Shown: in pieces, positions 30,501 to 45,500 of the stretch
Layout of the letters: the number at the start of each line of letters is the position of its first letter
Numbering within the stretch: position 1 is the first letter of the stretch
Made by a program: the position numbers
Assembly (NCBI GenBank): GCA_963770835.1
Contig: CAVYRH010000005.1
Location: forward strand, 160,001-224,000
Direction: 5' to 3'
Length of the DNA stretch: 64,000 bases
Source: an uncultured Pseudomonadota bacterium
GTDB taxonomy: Bacteria; Oederibacteriota; Muellerivitia; Muellerivitales; Muellerivitaceae

Positions 30501-33500
30501 TAAATTCAACTCCAAATCCGCGCTCGTTAACGTTCATCACTGTTCCAAATCCTTGGGGTTTGGGGAGTTGGAACACGTTGTCAAAGGTGAAAATAAGTCG
30601 TTCGGATCTTTTCGATATTGCTATCATCTCCAGGAACAAGGGGTTTCATCCGGGTCAAACCCGGTTTGTTGAAGGAGGGGCCCCTCGAGTCAAGACCCGC
30701 CCGGGGGAATGGTGGATGAAACCAGCGCCGAAGACGGACTTTTTTCTTGGGAAGTTCTTCCTCTTTTTCGTCAATAAATTCTTTTTTCTCGATTTTGAAA
30801 AATCCTTTGTTGTCTCCTGCCTCAGACTTTTTTTAATTTGGAACCCCCTTTGGACCCTCATCGTCACACTGATATTGGGAAACGGTACCCTCGCTCTCTT
30901 TGAATGGGGATGGAGATTCCTGGTAGCCACTCTTGTGTGCCTGCTGGGATTGACGGTCATCCGGCTTTTCACCCTCTCGGAAAAGGTTTGGATGGCCAGC
31001 TCGGATCGCACCCCGCCTAACCACGGCACGGGGTGGTATCTGTTGTTTCTGGGTATCCTGGCTCCTCTGGGGTCTTTCATAGCCCTGCACATGATGGTAG
31101 CTGGCATTAACCTTTTCTTCGCCGGTGCCCCCGTTACTGCGAACTTTCAATGGGAATATTATTGGAAAGAAATTCTATGGGTTTGGGCGCTTTTATTTGT
31201 TTGTTTCCTCTTCATTCACTGGCAGGAATTGAGAGACGCAGCCCAACAAGGGCAAATTCGGGCGGAGGAATTGGAAAAGGAAAGGTTGCAGGCCGCACTA
31301 GACAAATTGAAGGACCAGATGAATCCCCATTTCCTTTTCAACACCCTCAACACCGTGGCGGCCTTAATTCCTGCGGATCCGGTCAAGGCTGAGGAAGTGA
31401 TCGTCAAGCTTTCGAGTATTTTCCAGGGGGTTTTGGAAGCCACGCGCAAAGCCAATCATTCCTTGGAGAAAGAACTTGAGTTCTGCCGGAATTACCTGGA
31501 CATTGAAAAAGCCCGTTTCGGATCCCGACTGGTTTCGGAGATCGAGATCGAAAAGGGCCTGGACACCGCCGGAGTTCAAATACCGGTACTCTTGCTCCAG
31601 CCGTTGGTGGAAAACGCGGTGAAACACGGCCTTTCTTCCCGCGCGGCGGGGGGCAAGGTTTGGATCAAGGCTGCGTTGCGTGACGGCCGATTGGAAGTAA
31701 AAGTGGAAGATGACGGGGTGGGTTTTGGAAACTCGCCTTACGCCGGTTCCGGAACGGCCCTGGAGAACTGCCGCAAGAGGCTGGAATTGGGGTTTGAAAA
31801 AGAGGGACGGTTGGAAATAAGGCCCCGCGAAGGTGGTGGAACAACCATTTTCCTGTCCATGCCGGTTTTAACCGCGGATTCGAACTGAATCGGCTTGGAA
31901 ATTAAACATTTCCTGGAGGAACGATGATTAAGGCTTTGATCGTGGATGACGAGGCTCCCGCAAGGTCCCGGTTGGCCCGGATGCTCTCGGCCTTTGGGGA
32001 CTTGGAAGTGGTCGGTGAGGCCTCCAACGGCCTGGAAGCCCTCCAGACCGTCCAAAACCTCCAGCCCGACCTGGTATTCCTGGACATTGAAATGCCCGAA
32101 CTGAACGGTTTGGAAGTGGCGGAAGCCTGGGGCGGGAAAGGCCCCGCCGTGGTTTTCGTGACGGCTTATAGCGAGCATGCCTTAAAAGCCTTTGAGCTTT
32201 CGGCCCTCGACTACCTTGTGAAGCCCGTGTCCCCCGAGAGGCTGGCTGAGACCATCGAAAGGGTCCGCCGCCAAAAGGAACCCCGGCCCGCAGCCCATCT
32301 TCAAAAACTGATTGAGAGTTTGCAAGAAGGCCGAACCCGGCGGAGGATGGCCGTGAAGAGCGGGGCCAAGTACCGCGTTTTCGAGCCGTCCCAGGTTTCC
32401 GCCATTGTGGCCCGGGAGCATTATGCTGCCCTCCTGGTGGATGGCCAGGAATTGCTGGCCGACGACAGCCTGGACCAATTGGCCCAAAGGCTGGATCCGG
32501 CGAGGTTCTTGCGGATCCACCGCAGCGCCATCATTAACTTGGATTACTTGAGGGAACTGGAACACGAGGGGGACCGGAAATACACGGCGGTTTTATCGGA
32601 CCCGGCCAAAACCCGCCTGCCGGTCAGCCGCGAAAAGCTGGAGGATTTGAGGAAGGTGCTGGGTTTGGAATAGCAATCAGGAAAAATCCGGGAAGCCGGA
32701 TGGGCCCGAACCGACGGGAAAACGGCGGGATGCCTTTCCTGTCCCGAGGCCAAAAGTTTTTTGGGAGTTCGATGAATTGTGAGGCGGTTTTAAATGGCAG
32801 TCGGCGGACTTACTCTTCAACATCTACAACGGCGGGCCCTCTTGGGCCTGGTGATGGTTTTCGCCTTTGTTTTGCCATTGAGGGCTTTCGGCCAAACACA
32901 GTTGACCGCTTCCTCCGGCCTTTCGTCCCCATCGGGTGCCGCAGTCAGTTCGGCCCCAGCAACGGATTTGACCGTCAGTTCCGATGAAGAGATTAAAATA
33001 TTAGACGCCATCGATTCCCAGTCCAACACTCCGAACGCCCAACAAACACCTTCGACGGCCGCTGCCCCCTCTACCCCGGTTTCAGCCTTAACCTCGGTGG
33101 CTTACGCCCCACCGAAGGCCCCCACGGGGTTAAGCGTATTGATCCTGAAGGAAGGGGTTTATCTTTCCTGGGATGCCGCACCGCCGGATTCGCCCGTCAC
33201 CGCCTACAACGTCTACCGGTCCACCACCCCCGGCGGGGGATACCGGCTGGTCAACGCCAAACCACTTTCGGCCCCCTATTTCCTGGATAGCGCCCAAAAT
33301 AGCCTGTCGCTTCCGAGGAACGGAGAGGATTATTTTTACGTGGTTTCCGCCACGGACTCCCAAGGCCAAACTAGTCCCGACTCGGATGAAATCACGGTTA
33401 CCCCCCAAGGCATGGATATTCCTGAGGAAGCGCAGGCCGCCAAACCCACTCCCACGGCCACTCCCGAGGAAAAGGAAATAGCGATCCCCGAAAAAAACAT

Positions 33501-42500: not shown

Positions 42501-45500
42501 CAAGGGGTAGCGAATAACACCTATTTCATTACGCGTAAATTAGGGACCGCGCCCAATAGTTCAGCCCAGACCCTGAGGACGGGTTTCCAGGGGTTGAATT
42601 TCAATGACTCTGGTGTCGTCGACAAAAATTTTTATATTTATAACATTTACACGGTGGACGCCAATGGATTGACTTCCAATACTTCCGCGGCAGTGACGGC
42701 CCTTCCGGCAGCGGGACCGGCCCTTCCCCTTGTGTCAATACAAGGATCGAACGGTTCAATAACCACTGCTCCCGTGACCTTGACACAAAATACGGTTAGT
42801 ACCCAGACCGCGATTGGGAACTCTCTTAGCTGGGGCGGGGCCGACCAAGCCAGCGGACCAGCCTCATTCAACTCCCAAACCATGTATCCCCTGGGTGGAT
42901 ATGAAGTTTCCAGTTCCTCGGATGGCGGGAATGTTTACCAAATCCTTGCGACCCTTCCGGTTACTCTTGTGAATGGATATCCAGCCCCGGTTGTTGGCTA
43001 TTTTGACCAAGTACAGTTGGTAAGTGGAAGTACCTATTCGTATTTGGTCCAGGCTTTTGACAATCCGCCGGATCTTCCGGTGCCGCTTTCCCAGGCGGTT
43101 ACCGAGGGATGGGTTCACGTTGTACCCTATCAACCGGTGAACGCCTATCCTATCAGTCCCAATACGGCCTTGGACCGGAACGCCATCCGGCCCTTCGGGG
43201 CCAGCAATGAACAGATCGTGAACATCCGCTTTGTGGTCACTTCGAAAGGAAACGTGGATATCAAGGTTTACACTTTGGACGGCACCTTCGTAAAGGAATT
43301 GGTAAACCAAAGTTACTCCCAACCCGGCATTTATTGGACTAAGTGGGACGCCCGCAACCGGATCGGTAACCTGGTGGCCTCTGGAGTTTATCTTGTCACC
43401 ACCGAATCCCCCGGTGGGCACCAGGAGTTTGAAAAAGTTGCAGTTATTAAATGAAAATAAAATGGTAAATACGGGTTTCCTCGACTTTCTTTTTCCCAAG
43501 GCCTGCCAACGGTGCGGGGAAGGGTTTCGGGAGGGACTTTCCAATATTCTTTGCAAGGCTTGTTTTGATTCTATTCCCGCTTATGAAGACCCTGTTTGTG
43601 ACCATTGCGGGATTTCACTGCTTGCCAGATCCTTTGAGGACGCGCTCCGGTTTCGATGCCGCGACTGCGGCGAGGATAATTATTTTTTGGATAAGGTCCG
43701 GGCGGTTGGATCCTATGACGGGGCGTTGAGGATCGCCCACCATGGGTTTAAATTCGAGGGCATGGAGTTTTTGAAGCTGGCCTTGGCGGGGAGGATGGTT
43801 TCTTCCTCCATTCCGGCTTTCTGGGGGGAGGTTGAGGCCTTGATACCCGTGCCCCTCAGCGCTGAACGGGAAAGGGAAAGGGGTTACAATCCCGCGGCCC
43901 TCCTGGCGGTAGAAATCTCGAAAATAATTCGAATCCCATTTCGACCAATGCTCCGGAAAATAAAATCGACCAAACCGCAAATGTCCCTGACACGGGAAGA
44001 ACGGTTAAGGAATCCAAAAGGTGCTTACCAAGTTAAGGATGAAGGACCGGTTCCGCTTAAAGTGATCTTGGTGGACGACGTTTTCACTACCGGAGCCACT
44101 CTGGAAGAATGCGCCAAAGTTCTAAAAAAATCTGGAATAACTTGGGTAGGAGCAATTGTCTTTGGCAGGACACAACACCACTACCGGCAAATTTAAATTT
44201 AGACAAATTCAATTTCGAAACTCGACAATTTTCCTATTTCGATCAAACGTCATGATTGCCTTCGACATCCATGATGCCTGCTCTTGACCACTTAAACCCC
44301 ATATGCTAGCTTGGCCGCTCTTAATCCACTCTTTTGGGAGGATTCTATGGCAATCAAGGTCGGTATCAACGGTTTTGGCCGTATCGGGCGCAATGTTTAC
44401 CGCGCCGCGATGAATAACAAAGACATTGATATTCTTGCGGTCAACGACCTCACGGACGCGAAAACACTAGCCCACCTTTTGAAATACGATTCCGTGCTGG
44501 GAAACCTCCACGCGGACGTGAAGGCTGGCGACGGGACCGTCATCGTGAACGGCAAGGAAATTAAGGTTTACGCCGAAAAAGATCCGGCCGCCATTCCCTG
44601 GGGCAAGCACGGCATCGAGTACGTGGTTGAATCCACCGGCCGCTTCACCGACAAAGAGAAGGCTGTTGTCCACATCAAGGACAGCGTCAAGAAGGTCATC
44701 ATTTCCGCGCCCGCTAAAGGCGAGGATATTACCATTGTCTTGGGCGTGAACGAAGACAAGTACGATCCCAAGAACCACCATGTTGTTTCCAACGCTTCCT
44801 GCACCACCAACTGCCTGGCACCGTTCGCCAAGGTGCTCCACGACAAGTTCGGCATCGTTAAGGGATTGATGACCACCATCCATAGCTATACCAACGACCA
44901 GGTCATCCTGGACTTTCCCCATAAGGACCTGCGCCGCGCCCGCGCCGCGGCCCTGAATATGATCCCGACCTCCACGGGGGCCGCCAAGGCCATCGGCTTG
45001 GTCATGCCGGAGATGAAGGGAAAATTGGACGGGTTGTCCATCCGCGTGCCGACCCCGACGGTTTCGGTGGTCGACTTGGTGGTGGAGTTCACAAAAACCG
45101 TCACGAAGGATGACATCAACAACGCTTTAAAAGAGGCGGCAAAGAGTCCCAAACTGGATAAATACCTTGATGTCACCGACGAGCCCTTGGTTTCGATGGA
45201 TTTCAAGGGGAACCCCCACTCCTCGATCGTGGATGCCCAATCCACCTTCGTGAGCGGCGGAAATATGGTGAAAGTGCTTTCCTGGTACGACAACGAATGG
45301 GGTTATTCAAACCGGGTCGTGGACCTAATCGAGTATATGGCCTCCAAACACTAAAAAGCTTTATTGGCTAAGGATGTTTTATGCATCCAGTCGTATGGTG
45401 GGTTGCGACGGCGGTCGTTTTTTTCATCCTGGAACTGACGACCGCCTCTTTTTTCTTCCTTTGGATCGGGGCCGGTGCGGTCCTTACGGCCGTATTGAGC

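Follow-up and report, generated by a model that had tools for sequence, protein, structure and literature searches.

Among the motors closest to the system described here are Ton (ExbB-ExbD-TonB) and Tol (TolQ-TolR-TolA), with which the Myxococcus Agl-Glt core is grouped. The translocon of type 9 secretion systems (T9SS) is known as SprA in F. johnsoniae (PDB 6H3I, 6H3J and the 8GL6 series) and as Sov in P. gingivalis (model TIGR04189), and the related components include the PorV shuttle, the dedicated carriers PorP/SprF, PorE, and the GldLM/PorLM motor with its GldKN/PorKN ring. According to passages of a 2024 structure paper on F. johnsoniae (PMC10994853), binding of the cargo C-terminal domain (CTD) to its carrier inside SprA needs no energy, and release is the energy-requiring, motor-driven step. 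A passage of a 2025 paper (PMC12611786) terms SprA FCB-specific.

The locus described here belongs to a host outside FCB (genome G000) and lies in a window of 64,000 nucleotides, the whole stretch of DNA that was analysed. Its features are as follows.

22074..22592, + strand: Skp/OmpH chaperone, opening the lpxD-lpxA-lpxI cluster that lies upstream of sprA (PF03938, 96 bits; NF008047); candidate SkpA counterpart
27879..28967, - strand: lptG, conserved sprA neighbour (TIGR04408)
28964..30187, - strand: lptF, conserved sprA neighbour (TIGR04407, PF03739)
30491..32673, + strand: pair of a LytS-like kinase and a LytTR regulator, immediately upstream of sprA (PF06580, PF04397)
32794..38778, + strand: sprA, SprA/Sov-family translocon of 1994 aa with signal peptide, N-terminal FN3-like domain, SprA core and C-terminal Phe (TIGR04189)
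33100..33420, + strand: FN3-like domain at the SprA N-terminus (PF00041, E 0.0017, below cut-off; BLAST kinship with repeats of the downstream cargo family)
38781..43454, + strand: 1557-aa FN3-like-repeat protein with CTD, starting 2 bases past the sprA stop
43167..43451, + strand: type-A-like CTD of the 1557-aa protein (PF13860, E 7e-4; PF18962, E 6e-3; consensus W-D-G...G-x-Y...K-x-A-V-x-K)
43393..44196, + strand: comF, conserved downstream neighbour, followed by gap and pgk (TIGR00201)

The earlier note had taken the 1994-aa reading frame for a SprA/Sov translocon, and both this identification and the positions of the two large genes were confirmed. More specifically, TIGR04189 matches the protein with an E value of 3.5e-60 and 203.6 bits, just above the cut-off of 200, as against 960 bits in one FCB genome. 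F. johnsoniae SprA is the only PDB match of the family profiles built for the N-terminal and C-terminal halves (E 1e-35 and 1e-18), and the family profile covers residues 225-1530 of one FCB SprA (E 1e-73). The likeness to FCB SprA consists of collinear homology over about 1300 residues, a final Phe and a single gene copy, whereas the proteins of this group differ in length (1700-2200 aa against 2300-2700 aa in FCB, or 400-700 aa shorter) and in the N-terminal FN3-like domain. A crude count of amphipathic strands was discarded as unreliable.

The surroundings of sprA are partly conserved. The lptF/G genes lie near it in 12 of 20 loci of the same phylum and in many Elusimicrobiota loci, and the comF neighbourhood is likewise common to both phyla. 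A CTD protein related to the 1557-aa protein, the final 67 residues of which are matched by the PorZ model, stands downstream of sprA in 14 of the 20 phylum loci. The LytS-like/LytTR pair is confined to the family of the window (the window and 4 of 20 fetched loci), and the skp gene lies 10 kb upstream. Scans of the window for promoters (8 found, 8.4 expected by chance) and terminators (23 and 21.9) remained at chance level.

The CTD-bearing proteins form a large set, as the earlier note had claimed, but its figure of 124 requires correction: the CTD profile has 125 C-terminal matches (none in reversed reading frames), six of which are anti-sigma factors rather than cargo, leaving about 119. 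A terminal Lys motif is kept in 106 of the 125, and a signal peptide is predicted by a crude rule in 100, against a background of 42%. The profile matches PorU, PorZ, RgpB and translocon-bound CTDs in the PDB, and FlgD Ig domains are matched no less strongly than T9SS CTDs; TIGR04183 exceeds its cut-off in two of ten CTD proteins scanned. Among the 49 of 125 proteins scanned, the cargo consists of extracellular-type glycosidases and proteases and includes five sedolisin prodomains. That most cellulases carry the tag holds only narrowly (5 of 9 GH5 and 2 of 4 GH9), 6 of the 13 GH5/GH9 enzymes being untagged. Because genes for a pore, carriers and tagged proteins are all present, the plant-degrading enzymes likely leave the cell by a T9SS-type route. 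The Goldbacteria/FCPU426 group thereby gains a candidate way of exporting its cellulases; a passage of PMC7031533 reports cellulase activity for this group and gives no export mechanism.

Barrels of the PorV/PorQ family (NF033709) occur here as well, at 24 loci rather than the 22 first counted; 17 exceed the NF033709 cut-off, none of those scanned reaches the PorV equivalog cut-off, and the three reported PorV-FlgD_ig-OmpA fusions were found. The best PDB match of the carrier profile is PorV (E 3e-39), with FadL at 2e-7. A CTD gene adjoins 16 of the 24 PorV genes compared with 4.0% of other genes, and only 17 of the 119 cargo proteins have a neighbouring carrier. Such carrier-cargo pairing resembles that of type B CTDs with PorP, except that the partners here are type-A-like CTDs and PorU is missing. 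Unlike the PorV and PorP carriers, most of the 24 paralogues have periplasmic TPR, FN3 or FlgD-Ig(+OmpA) extensions; the OmpA peptidoglycan anchor and a neighbouring TPR+PD40 protein resemble a split PorE. Pilin-like genes precede one cargo-PorV pair.

As claimed earlier, SprA is phylum-wide, being present in 92 of 99 genomes and in 58 of 60 of high quality, and the reservation that most genomes score below the TIGR04189 cut-off also stands, as only 7 of 99 exceed it. The existence of a T9SS-type set without the motor outside FCB was upheld as well, but the set is not special to this phylum: in Elusimicrobiota SprA occurs in 96 of 101 genomes, including that of the cultured Elusimicrobium posterum, and CTD matches occur in 94 of 101. 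Records bearing the labels Aerophobetes, Desantisbacteria, Hydrogenedentota or Spirochaetia also have SprA, PorV and CTD genes without GldKLMN. The pattern search gave 119 loci, of which 11 fall below the SprA profile threshold; three (L056, L074 and L168) appear to be chance matches, and the labels of single MAG records assigned to Clostridia or Deltaproteobacteria are distrusted. One locus labelled Ignavibacteria (L058) groups with Elusimicrobiota in the SprA tree and was left out of the FCB count. Because this is a quick tree with the FCB row on a long branch, no direction of transfer is claimed.

The SprA homologue might instead serve in housekeeping construction of the outer membrane, with FlgD-Ig tails anchoring proteins to FadL-like barrels or with the tagged proteins leaving otherwise, for example by a type II system. 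This appears distinctly unlikely. The single-copy sprA is retained even in genomes of 1.0-1.5 Mb having 0-5 CTD matches and adjoins lptFG and lipid A genes, as would be expected of such a role, and the pilin-like genes ahead of one pair, together with a Brachyspira PorV-family barrel described as FadL-like in a passage of 10.1101/2025.01.03.631275, point the same way. However, cargo, PorV and sprA share loci (PorV, CTD, lptFG and sprA in 6 of 80 named loci; sprA, CTD and PorV together on one Aerophobetes contig), the CTD is near-universal in Elusimicrobiota, and all three parts are nearest to one known machine. As judged from gene content, a SprA-PorV-CTD export route is quite probable.

What would drive such a route is a separate matter. 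No GldK, GldL, GldM, GldN or PorU was detected in G000, in agreement with the earlier note, and the positive control that it lacked has been supplied: the GldL and GldM models match in 30 of 121 Bacteroidota-phylum (FCB) genomes, the 121 being made up of 96 SprA-positive and 25 SprA-negative ones. In G000 the GldL profile has a single match (E 1.3e-4), which falls on the coiled portion of MlaD, encoded in an mlaE-F-D operon, and was rejected. A fragment matching GldM (E 0.137) is noise, since at that threshold 3 of 14 controls match too. GldL_N was found in 0 of 99 phylum genomes (within Elusimicrobiota, the Gld searches covered GldL on G100 and G101 only), custom K and N profiles reached E values of 0.14 and 0.055 at best, and PorU (PF01364), which G000 and two closed genomes lack, was found in none of four non-FCB genomes and in the FCB control. 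There is thus no detected counterpart of the GldLM/PorLM motor and GldKN/PorKN ring. It is a very unlikely explanation that a motor and ring of this kind have diverged too far for the profiles, or that some unknown, unrelated motor does the work: the Bacteroidia-built models do miss 66 of the 96 SprA-positive FCB genomes, and SprA itself scores far lower here than in one FCB genome, but these models still picked up a gldL-M-N-K operon in genome G126 that is strongly divergent, G000 and two closed genomes (G074 and G100) lack the broad FGE fold to which GldK belongs (the fold is patchy, in 47 of 99), and 100 loci contain no conserved unknown membrane pair near sprA.

Because GldLM was detected in only 30 of the 96 SprA-positive Bacteroidota-phylum genomes, lack of this motor is a common state, perhaps the ancestral one; the absence of GldLM holds for this genome but is not tied to a non-FCB lineage. 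With pore, carriers and cargo occurring while GldKLMN is missing, both in several phyla outside FCB and in two thirds of the Bacteroidota-phylum genomes that have SprA, the minimal type 9 machine takes on a new definition.

The best candidate for an energiser is an operon of a long TPR gene, a barrel and ExbB-ExbD-TonB. It shares the ExbB/TolQ, ExbD/TolR and TonB_C domains with the Ton and Tol motors, and its partner barrel has a TonB-box-like motif as in Ton systems; it differs in being encoded with a TPR protein of about 1000 aa and either a barrel resembling TonB receptors or a PorV carrier together with cargo. The TPR gene is present in 95 of 99 phylum genomes. Among 20 ExbB loci of the phylum, 7 read cargo-PorV(+Ig)-TPR-ExbB-ExbD-ExbD-TonB, 2 PorV-TPR-ExbB and 10 TPR-barrel-ExbB-ExbD(-TonB). 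In other families the paralogue of the operon is merged with a cargo-PorV operon, and the family of the window has only the TPR-barrel form, 28 of 30 relatives having one match each. Literature searches found no link of Ton/Tol-type motors to type 9 secretion. Of the four ExbBD-TonB sets in G000, three adjoin TonB-dependent transporters, and a fifth ExbB-family member is flagellar MotA; none of these was accepted as an export motor. In Elusimicrobiota, tolQRA accompanies tolB and pal in 8 of 20 loci, and the motor there may therefore be an ordinary TolQR; this holds for none of the 20 loci of the present phylum, and the TolB-like and Pal-like genes of G000 lie elsewhere in the genome.

If the export route exists, the chances that its energiser is of Ton type appear evenly balanced. 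Tentatively, and with slightly more doubt than conviction, we propose that CTD-tagged enzymes are exported through the SprA-family pore on PorV-family carriers without GldKLMN, the carriers being freed by ExbB-ExbD-TonB via the long TPR protein. Cargo would pass the inner membrane by Sec, and its CTD would bind a PorV carrier inside SprA. The Ton-type motor would then grip the periplasmic extension of the carrier (TPR, FN3 or FlgD-Ig) and pull it away. Since there is no PorU, paired cargo would keep its CTD and stay on the carrier it is paired with, anchored to peptidoglycan in the cases with an OmpA fusion, for which PorP with PorE (type B cargo) provides a model. Several observations speak against this proposal: the family of the window lacks the PorV-linked operon although this genome has about 119 cargo proteins, E. 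posterum has the three export parts but no long TPR gene, the TPR gene is also present in GldLM-positive genomes, few cargo proteins have a neighbouring carrier, the CTD profile matches FlgD Ig domains equally well, and 6 of the 13 GH5/GH9 enzymes are untagged.

Alternatively, the same route may operate without any motor, loaded carriers diffusing out with the aid of an excess of dedicated carriers and of cargo folding outside. The shorter SprA, the many cargo-specific carriers and the complete genome of E. posterum, which has SprA, PorV and CTD genes and a single TolQR-like (ExbB-ExbD-TolA-like) set, with no GldL, FGE-fold gene or long TPR, are consistent with diffusion. It nevertheless appears unlikely given the energy requirement for release in F. 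johnsoniae described in part of PMC10994853, and given that 7 of 20 loci encode a Ton motor together with PorV and cargo. With E. posterum in culture, the source of the pull on the carrier becomes testable.

The Ton-driven reading may extend to FCB. There the long TPR gene occurs in 83 of 96 SprA-positive and 0 of 25 SprA-negative genomes, scored on only six candidates per genome and with the SprA-negative genomes probably forming one clade. ExbB-ExbD adjoins it in 8 of 12 GldLM-negative loci as against 0 of 8 GldLM-positive ones, and the gene is also present in 22 of 30 GldLM-positive genomes. It is conceivable, though doubtful, that SprA, PorV and CTD form an old secretion core shared by many diderm phyla and running on a Ton-type ExbB-ExbD-TonB motor via a 1000-residue TPR scaffold, and that GldLM/GldKN was added later, for the most part only in Bacteroidia, whose TPR-barrel pair lost the adjacent Ton motor. 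On NF052312, the SprE/PorW model (cut-off 250), the TPR protein of one PorV operon reaches 34 bits.

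The gene set of SprA (the giant translocon pore), PorV-family carriers and cargo tagged by a C-terminal domain (CTD) in the window's genome, G000, is real, and its translocon gene lies in the window itself, followed closely by a second large reading frame:

Window 32794-38778, SprA-family ORF, 1994 aa
Starting 2 bases past the stop of the SprA ORF, ORF of 1557 aa

The earlier note took the 1994-aa ORF for a SprA translocon, and this identification holds: TIGR04189 matches it at 203.6 bits (cut-off 200), and F. johnsoniae SprA is the only PDB match for both the N-half and C-half profiles built from 20 phylum members. 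The full profile aligns to residues 225-1530 of an FCB SprA (E 1e-73), and a homologue is found in 92 of 99 phylum genomes. Among 20 fetched loci, lptF/G lies close to sprA in 12, and a CTD protein related to the 1557-aa ORF comes after it in 14. Elsewhere in the window (55779-58664, + strand), behind a LacI regulator, is encoded a 961-aa secreted protein that has no CTD and matches CBM9, a carboxypeptidase-regulatory domain and, weakly, GH44.

The window's SprA nests among FCPU426-labelled records, in a clade with Firestonebacteria and Goldbacteria (SH-aLRT 99, quick tree). A pattern scan returned at least 119 loci, at least 108 of them confirmed as SprA; Elusimicrobiota predominate among the matches listed, and confirmed loci include the complete genome of E. 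posterum Dip510, a cultured member of that phylum, as well as Aerophobetes and Desantisbacteria. Hydrogenedentota- and Spirochaetia-labelled protein records also belong to the family. Within the Elusimicrobiota sample, SprA occurs in 96 and CTDs in 94 of 101 genomes. The gene order lptFG-sprA-comF-gap-pgk is common to the window's phylum and Elusimicrobiota, and the shared SprA locus looks like old vertical inheritance. A PorV and a CTD gene occupy this same block in 6 of 80 full loci among the matches listed, and E. posterum possesses a CTD-PorV pair. SprA is termed FCB-specific in a passage of PMC12611786, the T9SS is assigned to FCB in part of PMC11205867, a section of 10.1101/031039 reports none outside Bacteroidetes, and term searches of PMC7323717 and PMC5445135 gave no mention of Rhodothermus. 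None of the papers listed by literature searches, which did not extend to subscription reviews, deals with a non-FCB SprA or with a T9SS driven by Ton.

An iterated profile finds the CTD at the end of 125 G000 proteins (124 in the earlier note, whose type-A-like assignment stands) and in no reversed ORF. The profile matches the CTDs of PorU, PorZ, RgpB and two translocon-bound cargo; FlgD Ig domains match equally well. The 49 of 125 cargo scanned for enzymes, taken from gene clusters (first 900 residues each), include five sedolisins and enzymes of families GH5, 8, 9, 16, 18, 28, 30, 44, 62, 64 and 116. The claim that most cellulases are tagged is only narrowly true: genome-wide, the CTD is found on 5 of 9 GH5 and 2 of 4 GH9 genes. 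A subfamily of about 12 CTD proteins (e.g. C4:515311-518076) carries extra internal CTD-like repeats, 100-330 residues ahead of the terminal CTD.

PorV-family genes number 24, rather than the 22 first claimed; the family assignment and the three OmpA-bearing carriers are unchanged. Against the PDB the carrier profile ranks PorV best, 32 orders of magnitude ahead of FadL-type barrels. A CTD gene adjoins 16 of the 24, versus 4.0% of 4028 other genes. Thirteen come immediately after a cargo gene, but a carrier neighbour is found for just 17 of the 119 cargo. Most carriers bear C-terminal TPR, FN3 or FlgD-Ig extensions, three also OmpA. The operon at C11:239582-247049 (locus L034:7582-15049) encodes PorV-Ig-OmpA, a TPR+PD40 protein, a TPR protein, a 522-aa barrel-like protein without a family match and a plain PorV, resembling a split PorE beside carriers. 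At C4:145406-161331 (L049:1406-17331), a 2414-aa CTD protein and a PorV-FN3 carrier are encoded behind pilin-like genes, all on one strand, and on C5 (L035:8632-12358, L036:7712-11280) PorV-family genes lie within and next to a flagellar gene cluster.

As predicted from its genes, this set would act as the outer-membrane module of a T9SS does; it does not pass the tests for motor, ring and sortase and is therefore not classed as a canonical T9SS. GldL_N was found in none of the 99 phylum genomes and none of five named genomes. This absence of GldL and GldM, first reported without a positive control, is upheld by one: GldL_N, and GldM with it, match the same 30 of 121 Bacteroidota-phylum genomes. 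The models have some reach, since they caught the strongly divergent gldL-M-N-K operon of one of the 30, G126. That operon (L192:1830-6662) encodes a short GldM-like protein (380 aa) and a GldK with a long N-terminal extension, and by its SprA score the genome falls with the GldLM-negative group. Custom profiles for K, L, M and N, built on 26 control loci, matched nothing in G000 beyond the coil of MlaD, rejected as a motor part. The FGE fold (GldK) is patchy in the phylum (47 of 99 genomes) and was found in none of G000, the single-contig G074 and E. posterum; PorU was found in none of four non-FCB genomes, its FCB control being positive. The control works in both directions: SprA occurs in 96 of the 121 Bacteroidota-phylum genomes, leaving 66 SprA-positive genomes without detectable GldLM. 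Either the motor is generally missing outside Bacteroidia, or many true motors escape the models. That gene sets are incomplete in Rhodothermia and in further groups of FCB may, reportedly, already have been noted by McBride and Zhu in 2013 and Veith et al. in 2017. A cell-attached CTD xylanase of Rhodothermus, cited in a passage of PMC6539836, suggests surface delivery of CTD proteins in lineages that lack detectable GldLM.

The five MotA/ExbB-family genes of G000 comprise flagellar MotA, three neighbours of TonB-dependent transporters and one in a candidate Ton operon:

G000 contig C11, in the order TPR (981 aa), barrel, ExbB, ExbD, TonB

Its barrel gene is split in G000. At this place four contigs, which come from three runs of a single study, are one base shorter, so the split is probably due to an assembly error or specific to the strain. 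The barrel resembles TonB receptors, carries a conserved box motif and has look-alikes in both Rhodothermota and Spirochaetota. Twenty ExbB loci of the phylum, selected as best hits, comprise 10 of TPR-barrel-ExbB type, seven reading cargo-PorV(+Ig)-TPR-ExbB-ExbD-ExbD-TonB, two PorV-TPR-ExbB and one unrelated. In the seven, TonB is followed by an extra gene whose relative in G000 is the periplasmic portion of the PorV-Ig-OmpA fusions. The long TPR gene occurs in 95 of 99 phylum genomes and, in the FCB sample, in 83 of the 96 genomes with SprA and in none of the 25 without it; ExbB-ExbD adjoins it in 8 of 12 GldLM-negative versus 0 of 8 GldLM-positive FCB loci, hand-picked and including kin that are not independent. 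The Ton link to export is a good lead and not a result, because no PorV-linked Ton operon was found in the window's family, E. posterum has a single ExbB-ExbD-TolA-like set and no long TPR that was found, the motor genes lie inside tol-pal in 8 of 20 Elusimicrobiota loci (a placement noted in part of PMC12204202), and 22 of 30 GldLM-positive FCB genomes also retain the TPR gene. In such genomes (L269-L276) a TPR gene of about 1000 aa and a barrel partner of about 550 aa, with no NCBIfam or PDB match, persist without Ton genes.

In the T9SS, as described in a passage of PMC10994853, cargo is loaded onto PorV in SprA without energy, which is used to extract the loaded carrier. By analogy, CTD cargo here would be loaded on its PorV carrier in SprA, the loaded carrier would most likely be extracted by a Ton-type motor via the carriers' periplasmic handles, and paired cargo would be kept on its own carrier, there being no sortase.

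Six modules, taking in 6 of the 9 ECF sigmas found in G000, set an ECF sigma, a membrane anti-sigma and a PorV-TPR beside CTD cargo:

C26:278278-281025, module 1
C26:307439-310117, module 2
C26:341732-346200, module 3
C5:363876-366717, module 4
C10:103989-108499, module 5
C4:556550-559646, module 6

A CTD-like domain ends five of the module anti-sigmas and a sixth, lone anti-sigma (C10:209178). Tethered to the inner membrane through the anti-sigma, this CTD could be a sensor of carrier or translocon state. At a further locus, L250, a sigma/anti-sigma-CTD pair comes after the Ton operon.
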